DNA from: Deinococcales bacterium
Lineage (GTDB): Bacteria; Deinococcota; Deinococci; Deinococcales; JAAFIG01
Assembly: GCA_043778225.1 (NCBI GenBank)
Contig: JAYWGM010000103.1
Span: 1 to 12,296 of the forward strand
Direction: 5' to 3'
Length of the DNA: 12,296 bases
In this document: piece by piece, positions 98 through 12,296 of the stretch
Layout: each line of letters begins with the position of its first letter
How positions within the stretch are numbered: position 1 is the stretch's first letter
Translations under genes and position numbers: made by a program
The notes under the pieces: model-generated
What the model saw: only the letters and a program-made list of their open reading frames with translations
What the model was told of the DNA's origin: nothing
The model's database searches: none

Positions 98-231
98 GAC
101 CACTTCCTTAATTCGTATCCTAGCCGATTTAACTCGAGACATATGAAAATTGCTTTGGCTATGCTCGAGCTTTTGGCTGCCTTATTTTAGCTTAATCGCT
201 ACAAGGCTTCCCTTTGTGACTGATAACCGCT

Positions 232-247
232 TAAAATGCAGAACATG
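232..247 (+). promoter_or_regulatory. -10 box TAAAAT 7 nt upstream of ATG 245 (leaderless-type promoter of prs)
   Basis: Sequence TAAAAT-GCAGAAC-ATG, with no Shine-Dalgarno before either ATG 236 or ATG 245. Confidence 0.55.
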
Positions 248-1207
248 GATCGCCCCTTGATGGTTTTTTCTGGTCAGTCAAACCCTGCACTCGCCCAAGA
301 AATTTGCGAGCATATCGGTATTCCGTTGGGGCGCTCGATGACCAGACGCTTTAGCAACGAAAATATCGAAGTGCAGTTCAAGGAATCCTTGCGCGAAGCC
401 GATGTGTTTATTGTTCAGTCGTTGTGCGGTAACGGCGAATATAACGTCTCGGATTCGATTATCGAGTTGCTGTTAATGATTTCGGCAGCCAAAAGCGCCA
501 GTGCTAACCGTGTCACGGCGGTGATTCCCTATTTTTCATATGCCCGCTCGGATAAAAAAGACCACCCACGTATCCCCATCGCGGCTCGAGTGATGGCGGA
601 TATGTTCCAAGTGGCTGGAGCAGACCGCGCCCTGATGATGACCCTCCACAGCCCTCAGGTGCATGGGTTTTTTAGTATCCCTGTAGACCACTTGAGTGCC
701 GAAGTGGTGATTGGTAATCATTTTATTACTACATTGCCTTCGCTCGAGGATGCGGTGGTGCTTGCTCCAGATGCTGGCGACATTAAACGCGCCTCGAGTT
801 TGGCGCAGCGTCTTGGTTGTGGCATTGCTTTTATAGACAAGCACCGTGTTTCGGATACGCGGGTCGAAGCTCGAGGACTGATTGGCGAAGTCAAAGATAA
901 AATTGTTTTAATTGTAGATGATGAAATCTCGACGGCTGGCAGTATTGTCGAGGCGGTCAGTGTGATTAAAGAAGCTGGCGCTCGAGAAGTTCATGTGGCT
1001 TGTTCGCATGGTGTTTATGTTGGACCAGCCGTTGAGCGTATTCGTGACTTAGATATTGTTGAGTGTGTCTCGACCAACACCTGCTATGTTGCCCCCGAGA
1101 AACTTGCCATGACCGACAAAATTAAAGTTTTATCGGTTGGTTCGGTTTTTGCCGAAGCGATTCAGCGCATTCATACTGGCGAAAGCGTAAGCACGATGTT
1201 TAACTAA
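245..1207 (+). CDS. prs: Ribose-phosphate pyrophosphokinase (PRPP synthetase); ORF track start 236, ATG 245 preferred
   Basis: Motifs [38 protein letters not shown], the PRT loop [11 protein letters not shown] and the C-terminal GESVSTMF. The '[12 protein letters not shown]' and 'DDEISTAGS' variants match Deinococcus-type Prs as I recall it. Confidence 0.97.
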
Positions 1208-1318
1208 AAATGCTTCGGTGGTACAGATTTTAGCAACACTGCCATGCGCCGTTTGCTCGAGAAAAACGGTTGTACGATTAACCAAGAACAATGGGCATTT
1301 GCGTATTTGCCTCAATAA
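1208..1318 (+). pseudogene. 3' remnant of a GNAT-family acetyltransferase
   Basis: Reads KCFGGTDFSNTAMRRLLEKNGCTINQEQWAFAYLPQ*, containing the GNAT C-terminal motif 'T..SN.AM..L.EK.G'. There is no start for a full gene. Confidence 0.55.
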
Positions 1319-1347
1319 ACGAACCGCTCCTGCAAAGGCAAGAGCGG
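1314..1347 (-). terminator. Intrinsic terminator of the histone-like gene
   Basis: Minus-strand RNA CCGCUCUUGC-CUUU-GCAGGAGCGG forms a 10-bp stem with one G-U pair, followed by UUCGUUUAUU, about 20 nt after the stop at 1367. Confidence 0.8.
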
Positions 1348-1366
1348 AACAATAAACAAAAAAAGT

Positions 1367-1858
1367 TTAGGCTTTCTTTGCGGCTTTGGTGGCTTTCGCG
1401 GCTGGTTTTGCGGCGACAGCTTTTGCGGCTGGTTTAGCAGTTTTTGGAGTCTTTGCAGCTTTAGGAGCAGCTTTTGCAGCCTTAACTGCTGGCTTAGCAG
1501 CTTTGGCTACTGGTTTAGCGGCTTTAGGAGCAGCTTTTGCGGCTTTTGGAGCTTTGACTGCGGTTTTAGCGGCTTTAGGAGCAGCTTTCGCGGCAGCTTT
1601 TGGAGCTTTGACTGCGGTTTTAGCGGCTTTAGGAGCTTTTGCAGCTTTTGGTGCTTTGACTACTGGGTCAGCAGCTTTTGGAGCTTTGACTGCTGGTTTT
1701 GCAGCTTTTGGAGCTTTGACTGCGGTTGCTTTGGCAGTTGCAGTTGCTTTAGCTGGCTTAGCAGCTTTTGGAGCTTTGACTGCTGGTTTAGCAGCTTTTG
1801 CGGCTGCCTTTGGAGCAGCTTTTGCCGCTTTAGGAGCGGCGGTCTTTTCTTTTGCCAT
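1367..1858 (-). CDS. Histone H1-like, Lys/Ala/Pro-rich repeat protein (putative nucleoid-associated DNA-binding protein), 163 aa
   Basis: Almost entirely PKAAK/AVKAPKAAKP repeats with only two acidic residues. SD-like AAAGGGGGTGA lies 5 nt before ATG 1858, which is preferred over GTG 1867. It has its own promoter and terminator. Confidence 0.85.
   Translation of the reverse strand: MAKEKTAAPKAAKAAPKAAAKAAKPAVKAPKAAKPAKATATAKATAVKAPKAAKPAVKAPKAADPVVKAPKAAKAPKAAKTAVKAPKAAAKAAPKAAKTAVKAPKAAKAAPKAAKPVAKAAKPAVKAAKAAPKAAKTPKTAKPAAKAVAAKPAAKATKAAKKA
1542..1790. repeat. Intragenic tandem repeats of the histone-like gene
   Basis: 30-bp units beginning GCAGCTTTTGG(A/T)GCTTTGACT occur at 1641, 1671, 1701 and 1761. 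An identical 41-bp segment occurs at 1542-1582 and 1596-1636. Confidence 0.9.
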
Positions 1859-1887
1859 ATCACTCACCCCCTTTGGTTTGAGTCAAC

Positions 1888-1985
1888 GCACTTTTCCCAA
1901 GCGGCAATACGGGTTCTAGGGATACTTCCCGAGCCGCGCATTGAAGCGGAACAACTATATGTAGGGGTTTACTGGGAATAAGCAC
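1888..1985 (-). promoter_or_regulatory. Putative structured 5' leader of the histone-like gene
   Basis: Outer stem GUGCUU(A)UUCCCA / UGGGAAAAGUGC (1985-1973 with 1899-1888); its G-U pairs form only on the minus strand. Inner stems are GCGGC/GCCGC, CGGG/CCCG and GGGA-AGUA-UCCC. Confidence 0.45.
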
Positions 1986-1992
1986 CACAGAG

Positions 1993-2023
1993 AGTGTAGC
2001 ACGTTTTTGTGTCCTGTGTGCAA
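1993..2023 (-). promoter_or_regulatory. Extended -10 promoter TG-C-TACACT of the histone-like gene; TTGCAC 19 bp upstream
   Basis: Minus strand reads TTGCAC-N19-TACACT with a TGn extension. The predicted start near 1986 coincides with the 5' arm of the leader stem. Confidence 0.55.
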
Positions 2024-2184
2024 TATTTTCGCTACTCGAGTAAAAAAAGAAAGTTGATCTGACCTATACAGCGCCCATAAGCCTTATGGAAAGGCATTTT
2101 CTGTTTTTAGCAAAAAATAATATAAACATTACTTCTTAAAATATAGTATGGTAAATGCGCTAAAATAAACAAAATCTAAAGGCC

Positions 2185-2219
2185 AAAAAATCAAATCTCG
2201 GTCACTCGAGATTCGATTT
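2185..2219 (-). terminator. Intrinsic terminator of ptb
   Basis: Minus-strand RNA AAAUCGAAUCUCG-AGUGAC-CGAGAUUUGAUUU (13 bp, one G-U) runs into a U-tract about 22 nt after the ptb stop. Confidence 0.65.
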
Positions 2220-2240
2220 CTTAACTTAAAACTCAAATTT

Positions 2241-3215
2241 TTAAGCACTGCTTGGCTTAGCAAACTGTCCACGTTCAGAAAGGATGCACGCCAACGCAAT
2301 ACTATTAAATTTTGTTTCGCCACTGTCGGCTCTCGAGGTTAAAATCATTGGCGCACTTGCCCCCATAATAATTCCAGCCACGTTGCTTTCAGAAAAGTAA
2401 ACCAATGTCTTATAGAAGACATTTCCGACATCAATGTTGTCTACAATTAAAACATCGGCATGACCCGCCACAGGCGAAATAATCCCTTTGATTTCGGCGG
2501 CGGCTGGCGAGACCGCATTATCGAGCGCCAAAGGACCATCTATGGTTGCGCCTTTGATTTGTCCACGGTCGCCCATTTTGGAAATAATTGCGTCGTCTAC
2601 GGCGGTACTCATGTCTGGATTGACGACCTCAACGGCTGCCAGCATGGCGACTTTGGGTTTCTCGAGACCAAGAGCAATCGAAACCGCAACTGCATTTTGT
2701 ACAATTTCAATTTTGGCTTTGAGGTCAGGTTCGATGTTCATTGCCCCGTCGGACATACAAAAAAGCCGCTCAAATTTACCGGGTGCATCGAAGACCAAAA
2801 TATGGCTGAGTAATTTGCCCGTGCGAAGTCCCCATTCTTTATTTAATACCGCTCGCAGAATCGTGGCGGTGTCCACCAAACCTTTCATGATGATGTCGGC
2901 TCGACCTTCGCGCACCGCTTTGACTGCCAATTCTGAGGCTTGGGAATTGCTGCCTGCATGGTGAATCTCGAGTTTGGTGGCATCTATACCAAGTTCTAAA
3001 CAAACCGCTTTAATTTTTGTTTCGTTGCCAAAAAGAATTGGGTGAATCATCCCTTCAAGCCGTGCATTGTGAACCGCTTCAAGCACATGATCATCTTCGG
3101 CAGCCGCCACCGCCACCCGTTTTGTGCCACGCACTTGACCAATCAGTTTGGCTAAGCCGATTACGCTTCGCATATCGCGCAGGGGTTCGATGTGTGAAAA
3201 ATCAATGGTTTCCAT
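2241..3215 (-). CDS. ptb: Phosphate butyryltransferase / branched-chain phosphotransacylase (PTA_PTB family)
   Basis: Motifs VAVAAAED, ADIIMKGLVDT, DGAMNIEPD, DGPLALDNAVS, GHADVLIVDNIDVGNVFYK and GASAPMILTSRADS. The exact acyl specificity cannot be determined from sequence. Confidence 0.9.
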   Translation of the reverse strand: METIDFSHIEPLRDMRSVIGLAKLIGQVRGTKRVAVAAAEDDHVLEAVHNARLEGMIHPILFGNETKIKAVCLELGIDATKLEIHHAGSNSQASELAVKAVREGRADIIMKGLVDTATILRAVLNKEWGLRTGKLLSHILVFDAPGKFERLFCMSDGAMNIEPDLKAKIEIVQNAVAVSIALGLEKPKVAMLAAVEVVNPDMSTAVDDAIISKMGDRGQIKGATIDGPLALDNAVSPAAAEIKGIISPVAGHADVLIVDNIDVGNVFYKTLVYFSESNVAGIIMGASAPMILTSRADSGETKFNSIALACILSERGQFAKPSSA

Positions 3216-3230
3216 AAGGGGATAATAGCA
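3213..3230 (-). promoter_or_regulatory. Extended -10 (TGC-TATTAT) 6 nt before the ptb ATG; leaderless-type promoter
   Basis: Minus strand reads TGC TATTAT CCCCTT ATG, with no SD. Confidence 0.6.
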
Positions 3231-3231
3231 A

Positions 3232-3271
3232 GGTTAAAAGGTAAAAAGCATTAACCTTTGACCTTTTAACC
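3232..3271. repeat. Perfect 11-bp inverted repeat GGTTAAAAGGT-N18-ACCTTTTAACC built from degenerate 7-mers
   Basis: Arms at 3232-3242 and 3261-3271, lying between the MazG remnant stop and the ptb promoter. Confidence 0.75.
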
Positions 3272-3379
3272 CTAGCGGTTATCGCCAGCAATTTTTCCAC
3301 GCTCGAGCCTCGAGAACAGTTTTTCGATGTTGGCAGCTGCAACTTCCTCGAGCGTTAAAGCGAACTGGCACAAGAAATT
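3272..3379 (-). pseudogene. 3' remnant of a MazG-like nucleoside triphosphate pyrophosphohydrolase
   Basis: Not in the ORF track. Reads NFLCQFALTLEEVAAANIEKLFSRLERGKIAGDNR*, matching the family C-terminus 'L.LEEvA..Nl.KL.sR..RG.i.GsGDnR'. There is an in-frame TAG at 3380-3382 and the catalytic ExGD region is missing. Confidence 0.7.
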
Positions 3380-3402
3380 CTAAAAGACCAAAGCCAAACT
3401 GC

Positions 3403-4116
3403 TTATTTAGAGACGTAAACCAATAAATTCTTATTTTTTGGTGTCTGGGCTTTACCGGCACTAAAGGTTTTGAAGCCTTGGGCTTGGATGCTATAGGTAT
3501 AACTGCCATTTTCGAGATTGCCAAATAAAAATGGTGTTGTGCCTCGAGCCACTTCGAGACCATCTTTAGAAAGAATAACTGTGCCATTGACTGCTACTTT
3601 TCCATTAGTAAAGGCTGAAATCCGCACACGACAGGGGCATTTTGCATTGCTGGCGCTGCTTAAACCCTGCTGCACCGAAATTTTGCGCTTGATGCTCGAG
3701 CCATCGGCAGCCCGAACTTCAAATTCATATTCGCCGACGGCTGGGCTTGGTACATAAAACGACCATTGGCTGTTGGCATCGCTGCTGGTTGTCCCCTCGA
3801 GAACACCATTTTTATAAATCTCGAGATTTTCGCCATTCACGCCTGTTCCCTCGAGAATAAAATCTTGGGCATCGAGCGCTTCGGCTTGGGCAGGGTAGAT
3901 AAAAGCCATGACTGTGCCACTGGCATTGGGTGTGGCTGCCGCCGTGACCGTACCACTCGGGATTAAAACACCAGCCGCCGCTGCCAAGCCGATTAAGCCC
4001 CCACCAATGGCAATCATGATTGGTTTGCGTTTACGACCCATGCTCATCGAAACTGCACCCGCCACCAGCGTTCCTAAACCCAACAACAAAAGTGGTAAAA
4101 ACATCATTACATTCAT
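3403..4116 (-). CDS. Membrane-anchored surface protein: two N-terminal TM helices, an Ig-like domain and a carboxypeptidase-regulatory/PEGA-like beta domain
   Basis: SD GAGGAG 5 nt before ATG. Two hydrophobic segments are separated by GRKRK. Ig-like pattern 'GTG..G..LEIY.NG...GTT..DA...WSF......GEYEFEVRA.D'; C-terminal 'F.NLENGSYTYSIQAQGFKT'. Confidence 0.75.
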   Translation of the reverse strand: MNVMMFLPLLLLGLGTLVAGAVSMSMGRKRKPIMIAIGGGLIGLAAAAGVLIPSGTVTAAATPNASGTVMAFIYPAQAEALDAQDFILEGTGVNGENLEIYKNGVLEGTTSSDANSQWSFYVPSPAVGEYEFEVRAADGSSIKRKISVQQGLSSASNAKCPCRVRISAFTNGKVAVNGTVILSKDGLEVARGTTPFLFGNLENGSYTYSIQAQGFKTFSAGKAQTPKNKNLLVYVSK

Positions 4117-4273
4117 TCTTTCTCCTCAAAAAATATGCTCGAGCCTTTTGACTCGAGAACTGAATGCACCTAGTTTACCTAAAAAGCATGGGGCGGATGC
4201 ACCGATATGCTCGGGCGATGTACCTCAAGCCTCGAGTGAACCTTTTAAGGATTTGCCGACACTTATACATTAG

Positions 4274-4855
4274 ATGGATACTTATCTTTCTATGTCTGCT
4301 CCACCGTGGCAAAGTACACCCGAAGTCAGCGTGGATGCTGGTCAGGATTTGCGTTGGCTCGAGCGGGTAAAAAATACCGAATCTGAAGCCTTGAAATTCC
4401 TGTACGACAAGTACCATCTGGGTTTGTATCGTTTTTTGCGTTCCAGTCTGTCTCGAGAAGATGCCGAAGAAGTCGTGCAGGATGTGTTTTTAACTGTCTG
4501 GCGTAAACCCAATTTGTTTCGTGGTGAAGCCAGTGTTGCTTCGTGGTTGTTTGGGATTGCCAAAAACCTTGGGCGTAACCAAGCCCGCAAACAAAAGCAT
4601 CATTTGGCACTCGAGGAAAATGTGGCAGCAACCGTTTCAAAGTTACCGCAGCAACTCGAGTTTGAAATTGCACTGCAAGCTGTACGGCGTTTACCTGTGC
4701 AAGAAAAAGCAGTGATTGAACTGGTCTACCTTGCCGAACTGAGTTTACAAGAAGCTGCCTTGCAATTGCGTGTGCCACTTGGCACGGTTAAAAGCCGCTT
4801 ATTTGCGGCTCGAGAACACCTGCGGATTTTATTAGGAGACAATCATGCCCAATGA
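4274..4855 (+). CDS. ECF-family RNA polymerase sigma-70 factor (start uncertain: 4274, 4292 or GTG 4331)
   Basis: Region 2: DAEEVVQDVFLTVWRK...SWLFGIAKN. Region 4: LPVQEKAVIELVY...SLQEAALQLRVPLGTVKSRLFAAR. Confidence 0.95.
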   Translation: MDTYLSMSAPPWQSTPEVSVDAGQDLRWLERVKNTESEALKFLYDKYHLGLYRFLRSSLSREDAEEVVQDVFLTVWRKPNLFRGEASVASWLFGIAKNLGRNQARKQKHHLALEENVAATVSKLPQQLEFEIALQAVRRLPVQEKAVIELVYLAELSLQEAALQLRVPLGTVKSRLFAAREHLRILLGDNHAQ

Positions 4856-5549
4856 ATTAGAAGTGCTGAAAAACGGCGATGGTGGCGGTGAAGTCTGGCA
4901 GCGCATCGAACAGCAATTGTATCAGCCACCACCTGCACCGTTTATCTCGAGAATCCTTGAAAAATGGGGTTTAAGTGGTTCGCCACTCGAGGCTGCCATG
5001 CGTTTTGTGGGCATCATGCCTGTGTTGTTACTGGCGAGTATCAGTTCGTTGCTGCTGGGGATTTTCCTGCACAGTTCAGAACGCCATTGGAGCTTGGTTT
5101 TGCTGCTGCTCGCTCCATGTTGCAGTTCTTTAATTGGTGCGCTTGGTTTCCGCCAAGAACTCGATGCTAACGCCGAGTTAATCCGCTCGAGTTCCGATTT
5201 GCGTTTGTTGCTGCTGGCTCGGCAAATGCTGGTGTACGGTTTCATGCTGGTGCTGGTGCTGCCATTTGCTGCCTTTATTCCGCTCGAGTTACTGACCAAA
5301 TGGCTGATTCCAATTGTTTTTCTGAACGCTATTGGATTAGCGGTTGGATTGCACTTTGGTTCTAACACAGGTTTAGGTACAGCCTTATTTTTCTGGGCGT
5401 GGTTGGTTTGGTTGCAATTTCCTCGAGAACCATCTGAGCAAACCGTGCAACTGCCCGATTTTCCAAGTAACACCTTGCAACTGGTTGCGACGATTCTTTT
5501 GCTGCTCAGTGTCTGGTTCTATGCCGATAAACCACGGAGGGTTCTATGA
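4845..5549 (+). CDS. Multi-pass membrane protein, putative anti-sigma factor with a permease-like C-terminal region
   Basis: Overlaps the sigma stop; SD AGGAG. Short soluble N-terminus containing 'VWQRIEQQL', about 6 TM segments, and a permease-like 'ELIRSS...LLLARQMLV' loop. Confidence 0.7.
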   Translation: MPNELEVLKNGDGGGEVWQRIEQQLYQPPPAPFISRILEKWGLSGSPLEAAMRFVGIMPVLLLASISSLLLGIFLHSSERHWSLVLLLLAPCCSSLIGALGFRQELDANAELIRSSSDLRLLLLARQMLVYGFMLVLVLPFAAFIPLELLTKWLIPIVFLNAIGLAVGLHFGSNTGLGTALFFWAWLVWLQFPREPSEQTVQLPDFPSNTLQLVATILLLLSVWFYADKPRRVL

Positions 5550-6370
5550 TTCAAATGCTGGATATTCAACACCGTTACGGTAAACACATGGTTTTTAACA
5601 ATTTTCAGTTCTCGGTGGGCGCAGGTGTTCATGGTTTACTCGGACCAAATGGCGCTGGTAAAACCACTTTGCTTCGTATTCTGGCTACCCTGCACGCACC
5701 TCAACAAGGTCAGGTTAGTATCCTTGGGTTAAACCCACAAAAGCATCACGAACGCCTCGAGTTACGCCGTCAATTGGGGTACTTACCACAAGATTTTATG
5801 CCATATCCACAATTCAGTGCTTTTGAATTTGTTGAATACATTGCCATTCTTAAAGGCATGAAAAACATTACGCAACGCCGCAAAAAAGTCCTCGAGGTGT
5901 TGGCAGCCGTTGGTTTAGAATCAGAGGCACATCGTAAAGCAGGTGGTTTTTCTGGCGGAATGCGAAGACGGCTCGGTATCGCCCAAGCCATTGTCAACGA
6001 CCCTGCACTGCTGGTGGTGGATGAACCTACCGCAGGACTTGACCCTGCCGAACGAATTCGTTTTCGCTTACTTTTAACCAGCACCCAAGCCAAATGCACC
6101 ATTCTTAGCACCCACATTGTTGAAGATGTGACGGCTGTTGCCCCGCTTTTAAGTGTGCTGAACAAAGGACAACTTTTGTACCAAGGCACTGCGGGCGGGC
6201 TAACCACACACGCGGCTGGACAAGTGTTCCTCAGCAACGAACCCGTTGGCACAGTCATTGCTCGAGTTGGCAATCAGCACCGTGTCCTCACCCAAGAAAA
6301 AAACCTTGGTACATCGCTCGAGCCGAGTGTCGAAGAAGGGTACTTGGCTTTGATTGGTCGTGCCGCATGA
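5546..6370 (+). CDS. ABC transporter ATP-binding protein (ABC-2/DrrA-like exporter)
   Basis: Walker A GPNGAGKTT, signature FSGGMRRR, Walker B LLVVDEPT, H-loop LSTH. ATGA overlap with the upstream gene and SD GGAGG. Confidence 0.97.
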   Translation: MIQMLDIQHRYGKHMVFNNFQFSVGAGVHGLLGPNGAGKTTLLRILATLHAPQQGQVSILGLNPQKHHERLELRRQLGYLPQDFMPYPQFSAFEFVEYIAILKGMKNITQRRKKVLEVLAAVGLESEAHRKAGGFSGGMRRRLGIAQAIVNDPALLVVDEPTAGLDPAERIRFRLLLTSTQAKCTILSTHIVEDVTAVAPLLSVLNKGQLLYQGTAGGLTTHAAGQVFLSNEPVGTVIARVGNQHRVLTQEKNLGTSLEPSVEEGYLALIGRAA

Positions 6371-7947
6371 TTACGGCAGAGTTACGCTGCATTGCCCGTT
6401 CGATTCCCGCCTGGTGCTTGGCAGGATTGTTGTTGCTGCTCGAGGCGTTACCCGCCAACCGAGCCAGTGTTTGGGATGGGCTAAGTTTCTTATTTTGGTT
6501 ACAAACTGCTTGGGGACAAGCGGGTTTCTGGGGTGGTGTTATTGCTGTGATGCTGGCACAACGCGATACTTTACTGGGCGCAACCGAGTACCTTGTACCA
6601 AGTTCATTGTCTCGAGTGCGGTACTTGGGTGGGCAAATGCTTGCCATGATGATTGGTATTTTGGTGTTCTGTGCGGCGATTACCGTGGTAGTTTTCTTGC
6701 GCGACCCACCCGAGAATCTGACCAATTTTCATTGGTGGCTTGTGCTGGACGAACTGATACTTTCTTTCTTCTTGGCTGCCTTTGGATTACTGGTTGGACA
6801 CCGATTTCGTTCACCACTGGCTCTGGTTTTACCTGTCGTGGCATGGTTTAGTTTAACTTGGATCAGCAACGCTAACCTCGAGCCTTACACGGTACTCCCA
6901 ATTTTAGATGTGACTTGCAGCCGAATTTTGGGTTGCCCCAATATGCCTTATGCTTTACATCATGGTTTATGGCTTGGATTACTGGTCTTGTTGTTGCTGG
7001 CAACATTTTTTGTAACCCGACCCACACCTTGGAATCAATCGGTACGGCAAGCCCAACTCCTGATTGCCCTACTATTCACCTCGAGTTTACTGATTGTTGG
7101 TAGCTTACCGATTCTGGCGCAAGTCACAAGTAGCATTCCTAAACGAATTTGGAACAGTCCTAAAACATGGATTAAACTCGAGCGGAAAACCTTTGACACA
7201 CCCTTGTACCGCCAAAAACTTGCTTGTGTTGGTGTTACGCCCAAAGTTTGCTTATTGCCAGGACAAGTTGCACTCGCTACCCGAGTTTATGATGCCTTAC
7301 TGCGCTTAAAAGCCATACAGCCTAAAATTCAGTTACGAGACGTGATTGCCTATCCTGATTTGGTGGGCATTGATGATTACAAAACCTTTGAAACACCCAC
7401 CACGCTTTACATTTCCGAAACATCCCTAAAAGATGCTCGAGCTACACAAGTTTATAGTGAAACAACCAATGTAAAAACTGGGCAAGTTATCAAGCAACAC
7501 ATTACACAATTACAAGATTTAATCCTGATTCACGCTGTTCTTGACCATACATTATTTGGTAAACCCCGACAAAAAACCATTCAAGTTACAGCCGAAAACC
7601 TGAAAACTTTTCCTGCCAATATGCGCCAGCATCTAAACATTGGCGCTAGTTTCATGACCACCAACAAATCCTTTCCGACTGAACTGGCTATTTCCTTGTA
7701 CCTCGAGTGGTTAGCGCTTCGTGACGATGCGGCTTGGACAGAACAACAAGCGGGTATCAATGACAGCACAGATACATCTTTTGTGTACATGGGAATTTTT
7801 GAGGGGATTCAAGATGCCAAGCAACTCTGGAACTTAGGTCAGAAAATCGGTCATGCTCGAGTCGTCAAACGTATTCTGGGATTACAAAAAAATCCTGCCA
7901 TTCAAACCATGAAATTCAAGGATGTACTGCTCGAGGTGAGCCAATGA
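6367..7947 (+). CDS. ABC-2-type permease with a large C-terminal extracytoplasmic domain
   Basis: ATGA coupling; about 7 hydrophobic segments in the first ~250 aa, followed by a ~270-aa soluble domain. Confidence 0.75.
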   Translation: MITAELRCIARSIPAWCLAGLLLLLEALPANRASVWDGLSFLFWLQTAWGQAGFWGGVIAVMLAQRDTLLGATEYLVPSSLSRVRYLGGQMLAMMIGILVFCAAITVVVFLRDPPENLTNFHWWLVLDELILSFFLAAFGLLVGHRFRSPLALVLPVVAWFSLTWISNANLEPYTVLPILDVTCSRILGCPNMPYALHHGLWLGLLVLLLLATFFVTRPTPWNQSVRQAQLLIALLFTSSLLIVGSLPILAQVTSSIPKRIWNSPKTWIKLERKTFDTPLYRQKLACVGVTPKVCLLPGQVALATRVYDALLRLKAIQPKIQLRDVIAYPDLVGIDDYKTFETPTTLYISETSLKDARATQVYSETTNVKTGQVIKQHITQLQDLILIHAVLDHTLFGKPRQKTIQVTAENLKTFPANMRQHLNIGASFMTTNKSFPTELAISLYLEWLALRDDAAWTEQQAGINDSTDTSFVYMGIFEGIQDAKQLWNLGQKIGHARVVKRILGLQKNPAIQTMKFKDVLLEVSQ

Positions 7948-8870
7948 TTCGGCTTTGGTACGAACTTCGTGGCAGTGGTATACCTGCTTTGGCAACCATT
8001 GGCTTGGGCTTGATTCTGACCATTTTATTTGCGGTCTTAAATACCGAAGGCTCGATTGCTCAAGTACGAAACATTATGATTTTTCTTGCTACCACACTTG
8101 GTTTAGCCCTTGCGCTGCTGCCTTCGCCCGCCACGGACAGGGCTTGGGAATTAACCCGCAATGCAGCCGAAGCTGACGGTACAAGAGAACTTTTGCACAG
8201 CCTCGTTAGCCTTGGCATAATTGGTATTTGTTTTACTGCCCTAACAGTGTTCTTAAACGCCCCACCAGAAAGTTTTGAATGGTTTATCCCTCGAGCCATC
8301 TGGTTTTCTGCTGCCAGTGCTGCCACTGTTCTAGCCACCCGCAACACCAGTTTCGCCGTGGGTATTGTTGCACTGTTATTTGTACTGCCGTACTGCCCAA
8401 TGCCTCAAGCTATTAACCCAATTATCCTGCAAGAATCTCGGCTCGAGTTGCACGTTCTGACAGCCATCATGGCGTTGCTTGTCCCATTTTTTTACCGAGG
8501 ATTTTTGCCACGCCGCACCACCCAAATAGCCATTGCTCTGAGCTTATGTGCCATTGCTTTAGTACCACTTTGGCGCTTACAGAACCGCTCAGTCTTGCTC
8601 GAGACAACAGCCCCCAAAGGTTTGCCTGAACGCACGATGCTACTGATCGAAACGCCTTGGGCAAAGTTTCAACTTGCCGAACTCAACCGTTTTCAAACAG
8701 AAGCTCGAGAATTAAAAGGAATTGTGATACGCGGTGTGTATCGCTACCCAAATCGTCCTTATGAACTTATCAATGCTTATGCTGCCGAGAAATTCGTGGT
8801 TGCATTTGGAATTCATGCTTTTCCAATTCGGATTTGGCTCGAGCATAGCAAAGCACGGGTTTTGCCCTAA
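7944..8870 (+). CDS. Second ABC permease-like membrane protein with a short C-terminal soluble (thioredoxin-like?) domain
   Basis: ATGA coupling and SD GAGGTGA. N-terminal 'LWYELR' and 'DRAWEL' loop typical of this permease class, about 7 TM segments, and an ~90-aa tail. Confidence 0.7.
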   Translation: MIRLWYELRGSGIPALATIGLGLILTILFAVLNTEGSIAQVRNIMIFLATTLGLALALLPSPATDRAWELTRNAAEADGTRELLHSLVSLGIIGICFTALTVFLNAPPESFEWFIPRAIWFSAASAATVLATRNTSFAVGIVALLFVLPYCPMPQAINPIILQESRLELHVLTAIMALLVPFFYRGFLPRRTTQIAIALSLCAIALVPLWRLQNRSVLLETTAPKGLPERTMLLIETPWAKFQLAELNRFQTEARELKGIVIRGVYRYPNRPYELINAYAAEKFVVAFGIHAFPIRIWLEHSKARVLP

Positions 8871-8880
8871 ACTTTGGCAG

Positions 8881-8896
8881 TAGACTAAAAATTGTG
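8881..8896 (+). promoter_or_regulatory. -10 box TAGACT 7 nt before GTG 8894 (leaderless-type promoter of the MFS gene)
   Basis: Sequence TAGACT-AAAAATT-GTG, with no SD. Confidence 0.55.
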
Positions 8897-10141
8897 AGCG
8901 TTCAAACCATTCCTAATCGTCCGAATTTACAAAGCATCTGGCAGGATTTAAGCAGCCCTGTGAAACGTAATCTAATAATTTTATTTATTGCCCAAGCCCT
9001 CGCCACCAGTTCCACCACAGTCTCCACAACCCTCTCGAGCATCATAATTTTTAACATTACAGCTTCTGAAAGCCTGTCGGGATTGCCGAGTACCATTAAC
9101 TTTTTTATGTCCGCCGTGACTGCCTACTGGGCTGGGCGAATCATGCAGACCAAAGGACGGCGCTTTGGACTGGGTTGGGGTTACGCCATTGGGGTGATTG
9201 GCGCAATTCTAGCCGCAACCATGGCACTCGAGAAGAACTTAATTGGTTTTTTGATTGGTGGGGCATTGGTCGGTGCTGCCAACGGAGCGATTCAACAAGC
9301 CAAGTACGCGGCTGGCGAGATGGTCTCGAGTAATGTGCGCGGTACGGTGATTGGTGCGCTTGTCACAGGCAGTGCTTTTGGCAGTCTTCTCAGTTGGGCA
9401 GTTGCGCCTTTGGTGCAAGGCTTGGCAAAATCTCAAAGTATTCCGACCATCGAATTCGGTTGGTACTTAGGGGCGTTCTGGTTATTGCTCGGTGCGTTAA
9501 TCATTTTTTTTGGGTTACGTCCAGACCCGAGTAGCCTAGCCGTGCAAGAAACGCGAGTGGTCTCGAGTGGCGTGGCTCGGGATTGGGCGGTATTGCTCAA
9601 AATTCCCGAAATGCGTCTGGCGCTGGTTTCGATGGGACTAGGGCAGATGGTGATGACGAGCTTAATGGTTTTGATGCCATTGCACGCTAAGCACCTTGGA
9701 CACGAAGAAAGTGCCACTGGTTTAATTTCGGTGCATATTTTAGGAATGTTTGCTTTTGGTTGGCTGACAGGGCGCTTGGTGGATAATTGGGGGCGCAAAA
9801 TCATCATTCAACTCGGGGCTGCTCTGCTGATGCTTTCGGCATTTGTGGCGGTTTTTGCAACCCGACCACTCGAGATGGGCTTTAGTTTATTTGTACTTGG
9901 TTTGGGCTGGAATTTTTGCAGTGTCGCTGGAACAACCCTGCTTACCGACCAACTCGAGGCGCATGAACGTGCTTCGGTGCAAGGCAGTGCCGAACTTGTG
10001 GTCTGGATGTGCGCCGCCATAGGTGCGCTAGGCGGCGGCTTAATTGTGGGTGCATTTGGCTTTCCAGTCATTGGTTGGGTGGCACTGGGCGTTGGCGCAT
10101 TGCCAATGCTGGCAACATGGTTAATTGGTCGGCAGAAATAA
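8894..10141 (+). CDS. Major facilitator superfamily transporter (~12 TM), substrate unknown
   Basis: MFS motif-A copies 'GRIMQTKGRR' and 'GRLVDNWGRK'. The 'HILGMF' and 'LGLGWNF' motifs recall the RfnT-like MFS subfamily (from memory, unverified). Confidence 0.92.
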   Translation: MSVQTIPNRPNLQSIWQDLSSPVKRNLIILFIAQALATSSTTVSTTLSSIIIFNITASESLSGLPSTINFFMSAVTAYWAGRIMQTKGRRFGLGWGYAIGVIGAILAATMALEKNLIGFLIGGALVGAANGAIQQAKYAAGEMVSSNVRGTVIGALVTGSAFGSLLSWAVAPLVQGLAKSQSIPTIEFGWYLGAFWLLLGALIIFFGLRPDPSSLAVQETRVVSSGVARDWAVLLKIPEMRLALVSMGLGQMVMTSLMVLMPLHAKHLGHEESATGLISVHILGMFAFGWLTGRLVDNWGRKIIIQLGAALLMLSAFVAVFATRPLEMGFSLFVLGLGWNFCSVAGTTLLTDQLEAHERASVQGSAELVVWMCAAIGALGGGLIVGAFGFPVIGWVALGVGALPMLATWLIGRQK

Positions 10142-10289
10142 TTTTTGGTTTGACCCGCTCTAAGTAACTCATCAGTTCTAACAAGCTCGAGAAGCGTAGC
10201 ACAACACCATTTCCCTCGAGTATCGCTTGCCAAGGTTGTCCTGCTTGGGCAGGAATTATTCGTAGGCGATACTCGAGACTGGTATCCAT
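10068..10289 (-). CDS. Small hypothetical protein (73 aa) coupled to the lipoprotein gene
   Basis: ATG lies 2 nt after the lipoprotein TAA (TAA-TC-ATG). The pattern 'Y.LRI......WQA.LE......RF.SL.EL..YLE' looks like a compact conserved domain. The last 74 nt overlap the MFS 3' end on the opposite strand. Confidence 0.65.
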   Translation of the reverse strand: MDTSLEYRLRIIPAQAGQPWQAILEGNGVVLRFSSLLELMSYLERVKPKIISADQLTMLPALAMRQRPVPPNQ

Positions 10290-10291
10290 GA

Positions 10292-11992
10292 TTAGTATTT
10301 CAAAGCAACGTTTTTGCTTGTGCCTGCGCCAGTGTTAGCACACTCGTTTAAGCCACTCGAGGGTGGTGGGGCTGCCATTGGCGCAAGTCCAGCCCCTATT
10401 TTTCCTGCTAAGGTGCAAGATTTAATCGTGAAATTCCAAGTCTTGGTGGTTTTGCCGCCGCTCGAGTCGGTCACGGTTGCGGTAATGGTTTTTAGACCAG
10501 CCGCACCGATGTAGCTGTAATCAGTAAATTTATGTCCAGAACCCAGTGCCGTACTTTGTTTAATGCCAGCAATTGTCCATTCGACACTGCAACACGCCCA
10601 GCCATCCTCGAGGTCGTCGGTGTTGATGTCTATGGTTGGGATAATAAAATAATCGTTTCCTGCTAATGCACCAGTCGTGAAGGTTTGTTTGGGCAGTTCG
10701 ATGGTCTCAAACTCGAGTGGGGCTTTAATAATAATGCTTGGTTTGGTGTTGGGTGCTTCGGCAACTGTCCAGCGTTTCTCAAAAATTTCGTAGCTGACAT
10801 CGGTGCTCAATAAGCCAAATAAACTGAGTTCTAAACCAAGGCTGACATCGAGTCCCGCATCCAAAGACCAAGTTGGGGTGCGTGGAAAACCAGCCTCAAA
10901 GGTCACAAAACCACCCAAGGTGGCAATCGGACCGCCAATGCCGTAAACCAAAATACTGGCGGTGGCATCTACCCGAGCTTCAACATCCATGTCCAAGCTA
11001 ACACTGGCGCTCGAGGTGTAGGACTTACTAAAGGTGCTATAGGTGTCAAATTTGCCGTCCTCGAGTTCTAGCCCTGCGGTAAAACTCATGGTTTGGTTGC
11101 TTGTCCAATCAAAGCCAACGCTAACTTGCCCGCTAATAGAAGCCTCGAGTTTAATGCTTGGCACAAAGACAAGCGGTACAAAACCAATAGGAATGGTAAT
11201 AATTGGCAACGGAATTGTGCCGAGTAAAACTTTTTTATCAATTGTTTTTGCCAGTTCGCCCGTCACGGTTAAGTTGGTGCTTTCGGTGATGGTAACGTTG
11301 GTATCTAAGTACGGTTTGGTGCAAAGAAAACCTTGGCAAATAAAGACAAAATCAAAATCTAGGCTGATGTCCACGCTCCCCAAAACGCAGACTTGGTCGT
11401 TGGTGGTGTTTTTGTTGCCATCGGTGTTAATAGGGCAAAAATCTATTTGGACTGGAAAAATTAAGCCTTTGTTGCTGGCTCGAGTTTTTTGTAAGGCTTG
11501 TTTTTGACCATTGGCGAGAATCATGTACGGCGCATCGGTCAGTTTCATTTTGCGTTTGACCCGAAAACCCCCAGCTTCAAAAACCTCGTTGAGTTTAGCC
11601 TGCTCGGTTTTGACCCGTACCTGACCTGCTTCTTGAGTAACCGCCGTTATTTTGCGTAAAAAACCTTGGCGGGCTTTTACGCCAGCTTTGCCCACCAGAA
11701 TATTGCCAACGGCTAATTTTTGGCTCGCCCCACTTGGTAATTGGGCTTGGTCAAAAATAATTTCGCCCGTGGACTTGACCACTTTGACCACCGCATCCAA
11801 GAATCTATCGGTAATCGGCACAACTTTACTCGAGACTTTGGTATCTGGTTGGACCCGAGCATCGGCAGCCGAGGCTTCGATAATTGGGGTATCGTCGGTG
11901 TCGTTCTCGGCAACAATCGGGGTTGGTGCAATTGTGTTACAAGCAGCGAGGACGAACATAAAAAGCACAGCCATCAGAACAAGTTTTTTCAT
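10292..11992 (-). CDS. Large secreted lipoprotein, beta-rich core with a C-terminal PKD/Ig-like domain
   Basis: Signal peptide MKKLVLMAVLFMFVLAA-C (lipobox) and SD AAGGAG. Acidic/Pro linker, long runs of alternating beta strands, and C-terminal 'KTITATVTDSSGGKTTKTWNFTI'. Confidence 0.88.
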   Translation of the reverse strand: MKKLVLMAVLFMFVLAACNTIAPTPIVAENDTDDTPIIEASAADARVQPDTKVSSKVVPITDRFLDAVVKVVKSTGEIIFDQAQLPSGASQKLAVGNILVGKAGVKARQGFLRKITAVTQEAGQVRVKTEQAKLNEVFEAGGFRVKRKMKLTDAPYMILANGQKQALQKTRASNKGLIFPVQIDFCPINTDGNKNTTNDQVCVLGSVDISLDFDFVFICQGFLCTKPYLDTNVTITESTNLTVTGELAKTIDKKVLLGTIPLPIITIPIGFVPLVFVPSIKLEASISGQVSVGFDWTSNQTMSFTAGLELEDGKFDTYSTFSKSYTSSASVSLDMDVEARVDATASILVYGIGGPIATLGGFVTFEAGFPRTPTWSLDAGLDVSLGLELSLFGLLSTDVSYEIFEKRWTVAEAPNTKPSIIIKAPLEFETIELPKQTFTTGALAGNDYFIIPTIDINTDDLEDGWACCSVEWTIAGIKQSTALGSGHKFTDYSYIGAAGLKTITATVTDSSGGKTTKTWNFTIKSCTLAGKIGAGLAPMAAPPPSSGLNECANTGAGTSKNVALKY

Positions 11993-12014
11993 AGATAACT
12001 CCTTTGGTGAGGCT

Positions 12015-12046
12015 ACTTTGCTCTAGCTGCGTTTCATGGGCGTTTC
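12015..12046 (-). promoter_or_regulatory. SARP-box-like direct repeats GAAACGC-N4-GAAACGC, 8 nt upstream of a weak -10 (CAAAGT) for the lipoprotein operon
   Basis: GCGTTTC at 12029-12035 and 12040-12046 (11-bp period), an 8-nt spacer at 12021-12028, and ACTTTG at 12015-12020. Confidence 0.65.
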
Positions 12047-12062
12047 TCGAGTAGAGTGATTT

Positions 12063-12296
12063 ATGGAACTTCTGTTGTTTGGCTCGCCCAGAGTCGAAGG
12101 GTCGCTCGAGTCCATTCCGCTCGAACGACCTGCGTGGTTGTGTCTGTACTTGGTGATGCGTGCCGATTGGGTATCTCGAGACGAACTGGCGTGTTTGTTC
12201 CGCCCTGAGACCGATGATGTTACGGCACTTTCGGCTTTGCGCTTAATTTTGCATCGGGCAAAGAAATTTTTGTGGGCTGCCAGCCTCGAAATCGAA
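12063..12296 (+). CDS. AfsR/SARP-family transcriptional regulator, N-terminal winged-helix region (runs off window)
   Basis: Not in the ORF track. Open from ATG 12063 to the end of the window: MELLLFGSPRVEG...PAWLCLYLVMRADWVSRDELACLFRPETDDVTALSALRLILHRAKKFLWAASLEIE, matching the 'L.LlG.P...LL.YL.....sR.eLa.Lf.P......LR..L.r' pattern. A -10-like TAGAGT lies 5 nt upstream. Confidence 0.85.
   Translation, partial: MELLLFGSPRVEGSLESIPLERPAWLCLYLVMRADWVSRDELACLFRPETDDVTALSALRLILHRAKKFLWAASLEIE

Follow-up and report, generated by a model that had tools for sequence, protein, structure and literature searches.

CTCGAG is a highly iterated palindrome in a family of Deinococcales

Results

CTCGAG copies in the prs contig

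The stretch of DNA analyzed here (the window) is the 12,296-b contig C103 of G000, the draft genome of an uncultured Deinococcales bacterium, and the element in question is the palindromic hexamer CTCGAG, which recurs across the contig in prs, in other open reading frames (ORFs) and in the spacers between them. The window contains 73 exact copies, or one per 168 b, with the first at position 133 and the last at 12175-12180. Dinucleotide-preserving shuffles of the window (n = 200) yielded a mean of 1.31 copies and a maximum of 6, and 0/200 shuffles reached 73. Eleven main ORFs hold 56 of the 73 copies (29/14/13 in the three codon phases), and 17 copies lie outside of these ORFs. The starts of all copies, and the placements referred to below, are as follows.

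CTCGAG starts in the window, part 1 (exact matches): 133, 164, 585, 743, 793, 870, 981, 1256, 2035, 2205, 2332, 2661, 2967, 3302, 3309, 3347, 3543, 3695, 3796, 3820, 3850, 4138, 4152, 4231, 4358
CTCGAG starts in the window, part 2 (exact matches): 4452, 4610, 4655, 4809, 4946, 4986, 5186, 5283, 5422, 5756, 5891, 6261, 6317, 6439, 6611, 6877, 7080, 7177, 7436, 7702, 7856, 7930, 8290, 8442
CTCGAG starts in the window, part 3 (exact matches): 8598, 8704, 8838, 9034, 9227, 9325, 9562, 9869, 9953, 10186, 10215, 10272, 10356, 10461, 10607, 10712, 11010, 11060, 11144, 11479, 11829, 12046, 12105, 12175
585..986, + strand, five copies within prs (236-1207), in all three codon phases (Pfam domains and phase assignment)
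3302..3314, no strand, pair of copies 7 b apart in a spacer
4138..4236, no strand, three spacer copies between the divergent ORFs 3403-4116 (- strand) and 4274-4855 (+ strand, extracytoplasmic function sigma factor)
7930..7935, + strand, copy in phase 0 of ORF 6367-7947, overlapping the Shine-Dalgarno-like GAGGTGA of the next ORF

Within prs, the copy at 743 is in phase 0 (CTC GAG, Leu-Glu), those at 585, 870 and 981 are in phase 1 (nCT CGA G), and that at 793 is in phase 2 (nnC TCG AG). The copy at 7930 lies within CTCGAGGTGA, 8 nt upstream of the ATG at 7944. The initial annotation of the window had counted about 73 copies by hand and had described copies in every codon phase of prs, in intergenic DNA and over a Shine-Dalgarno sequence at 7930; the exact search and phase assignment bear out each of these points.

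Abundance of CTCGAG across the genome

The draft genome G000 (4,029,277 b in 107 contigs, the longest of 154 kb; GC 0.487; rated 89% complete) contains 24,877 copies of CTCGAG, one per 162 bp. CTCGAG is the most frequent hexamer of the genome; ranks 2 to approximately 11 are held by its own overlapping neighbors, and the first unrelated hexamer, CAAAAA, is present in 5,347 copies. The observed-to-expected ratio (O/E) of CTCGAG was 26.7, 47.5, 15.1, 3.6 and 1.2 under Markov models of orders 0 to 4, respectively, with the higher-order ratios being dominated by sub-words of CTCGAG itself. Furthermore, each of the 48 contigs longer than 30 kb carried one copy per 140-201 bp, and the excess is therefore not limited to the contig of the window.

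Coding copies were counted in crude gene calls, namely non-overlapping ORFs of at least 120 aa (3,347 ORFs, 88.5% of the genome), and synonymous codons were shuffled within each gene in 5 replicates, a procedure that preserves every protein as well as the codon usage of the gene. The genes contained 22,144 copies of CTCGAG (13,082/4,464/4,598 in phases 0/1/2), compared to 2,303-2,404 copies after shuffling (approximately 2,360; a 9.4-fold difference). Density was 6.18 per kb in genes versus 6.08 per kb in short non-coding gaps, and was level from -300 to +300 of gene starts and stops, apart from a slight dip in the first 30 b and a slight rise near stops. The tRNA genes of G000 held 6 copies, compared to 32.6 expected at the genome density.

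The tetramer TCGA occurs 36,442 times in G000, with 68% of these occurrences lying within CTCGAG and the remainder amounting to approximately 0.78 of expectation, and strong avoidance is seen for the other three palindromes of the form NTCGAN (ATCGAT, 224 copies; GTCGAC, 49; TTCGAA, 34). In the flanks of CTCGAG (-4 to -1 and +1 to +4) no base exceeded 0.31; these unconstrained flanks indicate that the repeated unit is the bare hexamer, not part of a longer repeat. An interspersed repeat element, of the type of a repetitive extragenic palindrome or a miniature inverted-repeat transposable element, was rejected, because no sequence conservation was found beyond the core hexamer. The spacing of copies in G000 is near geometric (mean 160.6 b; median 117 b versus 111 b expected) with a 3-b coding ripple. 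Between 8 and 20 b, spacings are 2- to 4-fold rarer than expected, and the minimum spacing seen is 7 b; a spacing of 6, which would create the almost absent word GAGCTC (24 copies), was never found.

The initial annotation had allowed that codon or dipeptide usage, a bias for TCGA, or an artefact confined to one contig could account for the excess. None of the three does so: the excess survives protein-preserving shuffling, TCGA is below expectation outside of the motif, and the same richness is seen in all of the long contigs of G000 and in the 19/19 genomes of its family described below.

Effects on codons and proteins

Among the 18,916 Leu-Glu pairs encoded in G000, 69% are written CTCGAG, and the saturation of permissive tripeptides is 56% for phase 1 and 42% for phase 2. 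The pair itself is also in excess, with Leu-Glu at an O/E of 2.33 relative to amino-acid frequencies, compared to 0.97 for Glu-Leu and 0.95 for Leu-Asp. CTCGAG outnumbers CTTGAG by 13:1 and CTCGAA by 12.5:1, whereas the same codons elsewhere stand at approximately 1.2:1 and 0.4-0.5:1. From these codon ratios, the fixation bias per synonymous step can be estimated at roughly 11- to 30-fold, with a scaled coefficient of about 2.4-3.4; such an estimate is compatible with selection or biased repair alike.

Conservation of sites between orthologues

Site conservation was assessed against the congener G125, 319 kb of which yielded 158 protein-anchored orthologue pairs with a nucleotide identity of 0.79 overall and 0.53 at four-fold sites. 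Of 1,106 sites in G000, 714 were also sites in G125, and in the reverse direction 714 of 948 were shared, versus 30% of other hexamers kept. At shared Leu-Glu pairs, G125 carried the motif in 79% of the cases in which G000 does and in 35% of those in which it does not. Codon-matched controls gave the same picture, as each codon was kept more often inside a site than elsewhere (CTC, 77% versus 35%; GAG, 82% versus 44%; CGA, 65% versus 37%; TCG, 80% versus 50%). The sites are thus conserved between orthologues in excess of codon controls, which is the property that Xu et al. 2018 (PMC5861425, in the text available to us) use to characterize HIP1, the highly iterated palindrome (HIP) of cyanobacteria. 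Conservation of sites at synonymous positions, which had been put forward for examination in the initial annotation, is in this way confirmed.

Distribution across the lineage

In the family to which G000 belongs, CTCGAG is present at 4.3-6.8 copies per kb in 19/19 genomes from five genera, and the reversed word GAGCTC is present in 0-568 copies per genome across the same 19 genomes. One family member, G138, has a GC of 0.594 in the 100 kb sampled, and the trait therefore holds over a wide GC range. In addition, six Deinococcales/Deinococcota records of metagenome-assembled genomes (MAGs), with Prs proteins 92-96% identical, carry 5.3-6.4 copies per kb around prs, compared to 0-0.49 CTCGAG per kb at unrelated loci (n = 47).

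The wider phylum was surveyed in an even sample of 120 further genomes, with genome sizes rounded. In the Deinococcus-like family f2 the word is depleted, at approximately 0.01-0.46 CTCGAG per kb, and in the Thermus-like small-genome genus g3 it is neutral, at 0.6-1.1 per kb and not above GAGCTC. Genera g4, g6 and g7, of the same family as g3, carry 1.4-3.4 copies per kb; families f4 and f5 carry 1.7-2.9 and 0.6-2.0 per kb, respectively. In 100-kb samples, CTCGAG was the top hexamer in both G014 (g4), where it exceeded synonymous shuffles 3.0-fold with a Leu-Glu O/E of 1.64, and G043 (f4), where the corresponding values were 2.1-fold and 1.35; in both genomes spacers match genes in CTCGAG density. 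G058 (f5) displayed a weaker excess (1.5-fold over synonymous shuffles in a 100-kb sample). These data demonstrate that the sister groups resembling Meiothermus and Marinithermus have a real but weaker excess of CTCGAG, in agreement with the remark in the initial annotation that the word is frequent in Meiothermus. Altogether, the trait is graded within one order: it is absent in Deinococcus-like genomes, neutral in Thermus-like ones, moderate in those resembling Meiothermus and Marinithermus, and extreme in the family of G000.

CTCGAG methylation in cultured relatives

Published methylomes contain CTCGAG enzymes from this phylum. Table S3 of Blow et al. 2016 (PMC4752239), in the entries available to us, lists type II N6-methyladenine (m6A) enzymes of specificity CTCGAG, without a cognate endonuclease, in three relatives: M.Mru1279II (Mrub_2385) of Meiothermus ruber DSM 1279, with 99.5% of CTCGAG sites detected; M.Mch9957IV of M. 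chliarophilus, with 94.1%; and M.Mhy14884I (Marky_0034) of Marinithermus hydrothermalis, with 94.6%. The same entries hold none for CTCGAG in M. silvanus, and they give the CTCGAG enzymes of Nocardia and Rhodopseudomonas palustris as 5-methylcytosine (m5C) enzymes with Vsr partners. In the accessible main text of that paper, CTCGAG is discussed for Nocardia only, where it clusters at the replication origin, and the enzymes of the relatives are methylome entries that are not tied to motif abundance. A 2026 hot-spring epigenome preprint, in its available portion, mentions CTCGAG and TCGA as methylated motifs common to one host-virus group, which is not identified there as Deinococcota.

Two ORFs of the Eco57I/TaqI_C type, L156 in G014 (at 2.437 Mb) and L154 in G043 (at 34 kb), are likely the counterparts of the published enzymes. 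The two share an identity of only about 30%, and L154 is a close M.TaqI homologue (E 1e-126 to M.TaqI structures). Full-length orthologues of L156 (at least 52% identity) were found in G014, G033, G008, G105 and G086. The L156 homologue of G031 (g7, 3.06 copies per kb), at G031:C16:44567-46288, is broken into three frames with one stop, and high motif density thus persists beside a decayed copy of the gene. Every g3 genome sampled contains a close homologue of M.TaqI (e.g., G048:C36:23491-24681) with an identity of 51-58% to L154, which makes it probable that this genus is Thermus; in G041, G066 and G049 the homologue is interrupted by a stop codon.

Methyltransferase and repair genes in the family of G000

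G000 has approximately 24 methyltransferase genes, which NCBIfam, Pfam, PADLOC and PDB matches assign to classes, not specificities; the pseudogene L094, interrupted by an internal stop, was excluded from these comparisons. Both of its gamma-class (TaqI/Eco57I-type) type II methyltransferase genes overlap predicted type II restriction enzyme genes, in the following two restriction-modification (R-M) operons.

G000:C92:60722-63236 (L333:4722-7237), type II R-M operon, predicted REase_II gene overlapping a gamma-class methyltransferase gene
G000:C65:14517-17197 (L334:5518-8198), type II R-M operon, predicted REase_II gene overlapping a gamma-class methyltransferase gene

The endonuclease gene of the C92 operon lies inside a 1,403-b CTCGAG-free stretch with a GC of 0.37, and the neighbors of the C65 operon are defence-like genes (PDC-S02/YhcG nuclease, HEC-01A ATPase, HicB and PIN). 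Three further methyltransferases of G000 adjoin restriction genes; no restriction partner was detected for its five C5 enzymes or for L091, L092, L093 and L112. Searches of families f3, f4 and f5 did not recover L099, the TaqI_C-type enzyme of G000, and over their length the N6_N4 enzymes of the CTCGAG-rich sister-family genomes reach no more than 28% identity to those of G000. Five of these sister-family genomes were searched for a C5 methyltransferase, and none was found. Across the family of G000, the Eco57I-family matches of approximately 500 residues are diverse HsdM-like proteins in small clusters, and the enzymes of G138 are not orthologous to the gamma-class enzymes of G000.

A Vsr homologue was likewise not found in G000, in a search whose controls matched E. 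coli, B. subtilis and Caulobacter; the initial annotation had raised a Vsr-like repair gene as a possible partner of the motif, and this suggestion was not sustained. The transition neighbors of CTCGAG were not depleted in G000, with an O/E of 1.37 for TTCGAG/CTCGAA and 1.40 for CTTGAG/CTCAAG. A very-short-patch bias of the Vsr/Dcm type was therefore rejected, given the missing Vsr, the absence of C5 enzymes from several CTCGAG-rich genomes and the undepleted neighbors. Pfam XhoI (PF04555) had no match in G000, nor in any of 14 control genomes.

Palindrome avoidance and CTCGAG-free DNA

Apart from CTCGAG, many palindromes are extremely scarce in G000. An O/E below 0.05 was found for 29/64 palindromic hexamers, compared to 65/4,032 non-palindromic hexamers as rare; GGGCCC, AGGCCT and GACGTC are present in 1 copy each and GGCGCC in 3, GGCC is present in 131 copies (O/E 0.01), and the O/E of GATC is 0.13. 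This extreme avoidance of palindromes fits the approximately 24 methyltransferase genes and several R-M operons of G000.

CTCGAG-free gaps longer than 2 kb number 11 in G000, compared to 0.1 expected, and most have a GC of 0.31-0.39 versus 0.487 for the genome; this low GC makes a recent import of the DNA probable. Three of these gaps, and the longest CTCGAG-free stretch of the window, are located as follows.

G000:C44:57430-63066, CTCGAG-free gap
G000:C41:55253-59552, CTCGAG-free gap
G000:C40:7694-11073, CTCGAG-free gap
1262..2034 of the window, no strand, longest CTCGAG-free stretch of the window (779 b between copies), covering ORF 1386-1919

ORF 1386-1919 (177 aa) has no Pfam match, and contigs from two sequencing runs skip or rearrange parts of window positions 1440-1851.

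A scan of IMG/VR for three sites within 78 b returned at least 126 loci. The longer CTCGAG-rich loci among these have a GC of 0.60-0.71 and numerous GGCC sites, and thus bear no resemblance to the family of G000. HK97 capsid and TerL searches gave no match in G000.

Other features of the window

The gene order around prs is not kept relative to six congeners (L001-L006), in which prs alone matches by DNA and by protein, and the DNA alignment of the window to these congeners covers only the approximately 1 kb of prs. The two ORFs of 526 aa and 308 aa in 6367-8870 (+ strand) matched no Pfam family, the 566-aa ORF at 10292-11992 (- strand) matched DUF7223 below threshold only, and an Rfam search of the window gave no match. 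Assembled contigs of three sequencing runs were compared with the window. Two of these runs may stem from the source sample, and the third contains a relative that is 90-95% identical over part of the window; among the 32 listed differences specific to this run (40 of 712 differences were listed), the change at position 2334 is the only one inside of a site.

Discussion

CTCGAG as a highly iterated palindrome

By the data presented here, CTCGAG is a genuine highly iterated palindrome, characteristic of a single family of Deinococcales: it is over-represented genome-wide by 15.1- to 47.5-fold under Markov orders 0 to 2, independently of coding, throughout the lineage, and its sites are conserved beyond controls. 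The proposal in the initial annotation that the word behaves like HIP1 outside of the cyanobacteria is thereby upheld, as it occurs in all phases and in spacers, in 19/19 family genomes, and with conservation about twice that of control codons. It is not HIP1 itself, as the word is CTCGAG and not GCGATCGC, and the host is a member of the Deinococcales and not of the Cyanobacteria. To our knowledge, HIP1 is known from cyanobacteria only and has gone unexplained for three decades. No report of CTCGAG as a highly iterated or over-represented bacterial palindrome was found in the literature, with subscription journals outside the coverage, and no mention of CTCGAG or of Deinococcota was found in the HIP1 papers searched. 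The papers found that bring CTCGAG and Meiothermus together deal, by title and abstract, with enzyme cloning and characterization.

The likeness to HIP1 (GCGATCGC) and the alternate HIPs (PMC4390886, PMC5861425, as far as their available text goes) extends over several features. Each is a short GC-containing palindrome that is hyper-abundant genome-wide, found in all reading frames and in non-coding DNA, lineage-wide and conserved beyond codons; each encloses a methyltransferase site (TCGA in CTCGAG; GATC and CGATCG in HIP1); and, just as HIP1 is tied to orphan methyltransferases (PMC4390886), CTCGAG is methylated in cultured relatives by enzymes without a restriction partner. However, CTCGAG is a hexamer, a different word and in a different phylum, whereas HIP1 is an octamer; it occurs once per 147-233 b, compared to approximately once per kb for the HIPs (PMC4390886); and it reshapes the proteome through the 2.3-fold Leu-Glu excess. 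The modification also differs, being m6A in the CTCGAG relatives versus m5C plus m6A in HIP1, and no methyltransferase was found to be conserved across the CTCGAG family.

Two other kinds of system offer comparison. Dcm/Vsr very-short-patch repair over-represents CCWGG in E. coli, and a methylated palindrome could similarly rise in frequency through biased repair; however, G000 has no detected Vsr, and the CTCGAG excess is larger by orders of magnitude. Nocardia makes use of the same word CTCGAG, which is clustered at the replication origin there and evenly spread in the family of G000. The uptake sequences of Neisseria (DNA uptake sequence, DUS) and Pasteurellaceae (uptake signal sequence, USS) are non-palindromic words of 9-12 nt that occur approximately once per kb and are often paired in terminators. 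Like CTCGAG, they are short lineage-specific words, over-represented in genes and spacers, that mark a lineage's own DNA, and the Deinococcota include naturally competent genera. CTCGAG differs from them in being a 6-nt palindrome at approximately six copies per kb, and the Deinococcus-like and Thermus-like genomes are without the excess.

Possible origins of the excess

The reading that we tentatively favor, on the basis of the genome comparison and of the methylomes of relatives, is that CTCGAG may be a methylated mark of the bacterium's own DNA, with a density upheld by a small advantage per site or by a repair bias. Under this model, a weak genome-wide directional pressure would create and retain the exact hexamer in every type of sequence, and a DNA methyltransferase without a restriction partner would modify the site, as in the cultured relatives (CTCGm6AG) and in line with the explanation currently preferred for HIP1. 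Some genome-wide DNA process could then read the methylated copies as a dense 'own DNA' mark, candidates being the uptake or recombination of kin DNA and strand choice in repair, and each copy would confer a small advantage or be favored by repair. In the family of G000 the sites are probably methylated, and a responsible enzyme and a reader of the mark are presumed. The orphan CTCGAG methyltransferases of the relatives point in this direction, as they share the word and the phylum, have no listed endonuclease and belong to the same families in which the weaker excess is found. Methylation can also be of consequence for an iterated palindrome, since HIP1 raises natural transformation only if methylated (bioRxiv 10.1101/2024.09.10.611283; PMC13756078, in their accessible parts).

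However, a number of observations weigh against this reading. The candidate counterparts L156 and L154 have no orthologue in G000, where their best matches are catalytic domains 23-25% identical, and their occurrence does not follow the density of the motif: the L156 type is present in 3/13 g4 genomes and 0/3 g6 genomes, all equally motif-rich, and the L154 type is present in G043, in g13 and in 23/23 genomes of the Thermus-like genus g3, which show no excess. The predicted restriction enzymes adjoining both gamma-class methyltransferases of G000 indicate that these two are not orphans. Among the 19 family genomes, which are MAGs of 57-94% completeness in which single absences weigh little, Pfam searches recovered TaqI_C domains in 6/19 genomes only, and did not find N6_N4 in G138, G133 and G128, C5 in G121 and G128, or D12 in G130; G138 is a single 5.1-Mb contig rated 94% complete, and its absences are therefore not due to fragmentation. 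No methyltransferase common to all 19 family genomes was found, nor any of known CTCGAG specificity. A CTCGAG or TCGA methyltransferase without an endonuclease that is co-distributed with the motif, as had been anticipated in the initial annotation, was thus not found in the family of G000, where methyltransferase sets are patchy. Lastly, the strong conservation of sites between orthologues does not prove selection, since, with 69% saturation, an overlap in most sites is expected of any two lineages that have reached one and the same biased equilibrium.

An unlikely but possible alternative is that the motif accumulates neutrally and without function, through a sequence-specific repair, methylation-linked or not, that converts near-CTCGAG words or restores sites. 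Such a process would leave genes and spacers equally dense, the density level across gene features and independent of phase, as observed, and the weak pressure per site suggested by the codon ratios is what biased repair is expected to exert. It is also consistent with the 3-7 copies per kb still held by low-GC methyltransferase genes and with the small number of low-GC islands that lack the motif (the 11 gaps described above), so that resident DNA seems to acquire it; the HIP1 model of Elhai 2015 (PMC4390886, in its available text) is a repair-driven accumulation of the same kind. On the other hand, no Vsr homologue was found in G000 with a positive control search, and no C5 methyltransferase was found in the five CTCGAG-rich sister-family genomes nor in G121 and G128. 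Moreover, T:G-to-C:G patch repair should deplete the transition neighbors, which are not depleted in G000, although decay of CTCGAG could mask such a depletion, and the 2.3-fold Leu-Glu excess is a large amino-acid cost for a by-product.

It is rather improbable that the site is bound directly, independently of methylation, by an abundant DNA-binding protein (nucleoid- or chromosome-structuring, or acting in recombination or uptake), with selection acting on site density. The even, near-geometric spread with depletion of spacings of 8-20 b would suit such a protein, as would the lack of a methyltransferase conserved across the family, and Xu et al. 2018 (PMC5861425, in the text available to us) argue for a role of HIP1 in chromosome structure and treat a quasi-periodic distribution at 10-90 kb as one of its traits. 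No candidate protein was found, however; a 6-bp site every 160 b would call for a very abundant reader, and the near-complete methylation reported for the three cultured relatives points to methylation within the system.

A less conventional writer, which does not depend on a methyltransferase, is about as improbable: an enzyme or other protein could recognize CTCGAG or near-CTCGAG heteroduplexes and drive them to the full site, in which case the methyltransferases of the relatives would be secondary, protective recruits. If true, this would represent a bacterial motif drive that has recoded two thirds of Leu-Glu pairs and added thousands of Leu-Glu pairs to the proteome.

The chances are lower still that methyltransferases merely follow the motif, with CTCGAG-rich genomes repeatedly recruiting unrelated enzymes for protection against lethal XhoI-type endonucleases. 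The patchy distribution of enzymes, and the roughly 30% identity between the candidates of G014 and G043, one of which is a close TaqI relative, would be expected from such recruitment, and G000 does possess many R-M systems and avoids most other palindromes (29/64 with O/E below 0.05). This scenario, however, leaves the original rise of CTCGAG unexplained, and no CTCGAG-specific enzyme was identified in the family of G000; the lack of an XhoI-family endonuclease is uninformative here, because the same Pfam search matched no control genome.

Finally, trivial causes (the usage of codons or dipeptides, a bias for TCGA or for dinucleotides, membership in a longer repeat, and artefacts of assembly or adapters) are excluded for practical purposes: phase 0 (Leu-Glu) does account for most coding copies (13,082/22,144), and in Thermus-like genomes, which are GC-rich, CTCGAG and GAGCTC are similarly frequent, so that codon usage can account for the counts there, but in G000 the count is 9.4-fold above protein-preserving shuffles, spacers are as rich as genes, the O/E is 47.5 under a dinucleotide model, TCGA is below expectation outside of the motif and the flanks are free, and the same density is found in 19 genomes and in six separately deposited MAG records.

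With regard to the mechanism specific to the lineage that the initial annotation had proposed, the orphan CTCGAG m6A enzymes published for three relatives (PMC4752239, in the entries available to us) lend it support, and none of the particular mechanisms put forward has been demonstrated.

Significance

With CTCGAG, the iterated palindrome is met with independently, and at higher density, in a further phylum, which makes it a general phenomenon and provides a contrast against which explanations of it can be tested. What is new here is the graded distribution across the phylum, the link to published m6A in three relatives, and the finding of no shared methyltransferase. The CTCGAG hexamer has a plain readout in XhoI digestion and m6A calling, and experiments are feasible because the cultured relative Meiothermus ruber has a published methylome and an identified CTCGAG methyltransferase. 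For the family of G000 itself, the CTCGAG load distorts codon and dipeptide statistics, the absence of the word flags imported DNA, and genomes so rich in CTCGAG would be extremely sensitive to XhoI-type enzymes.

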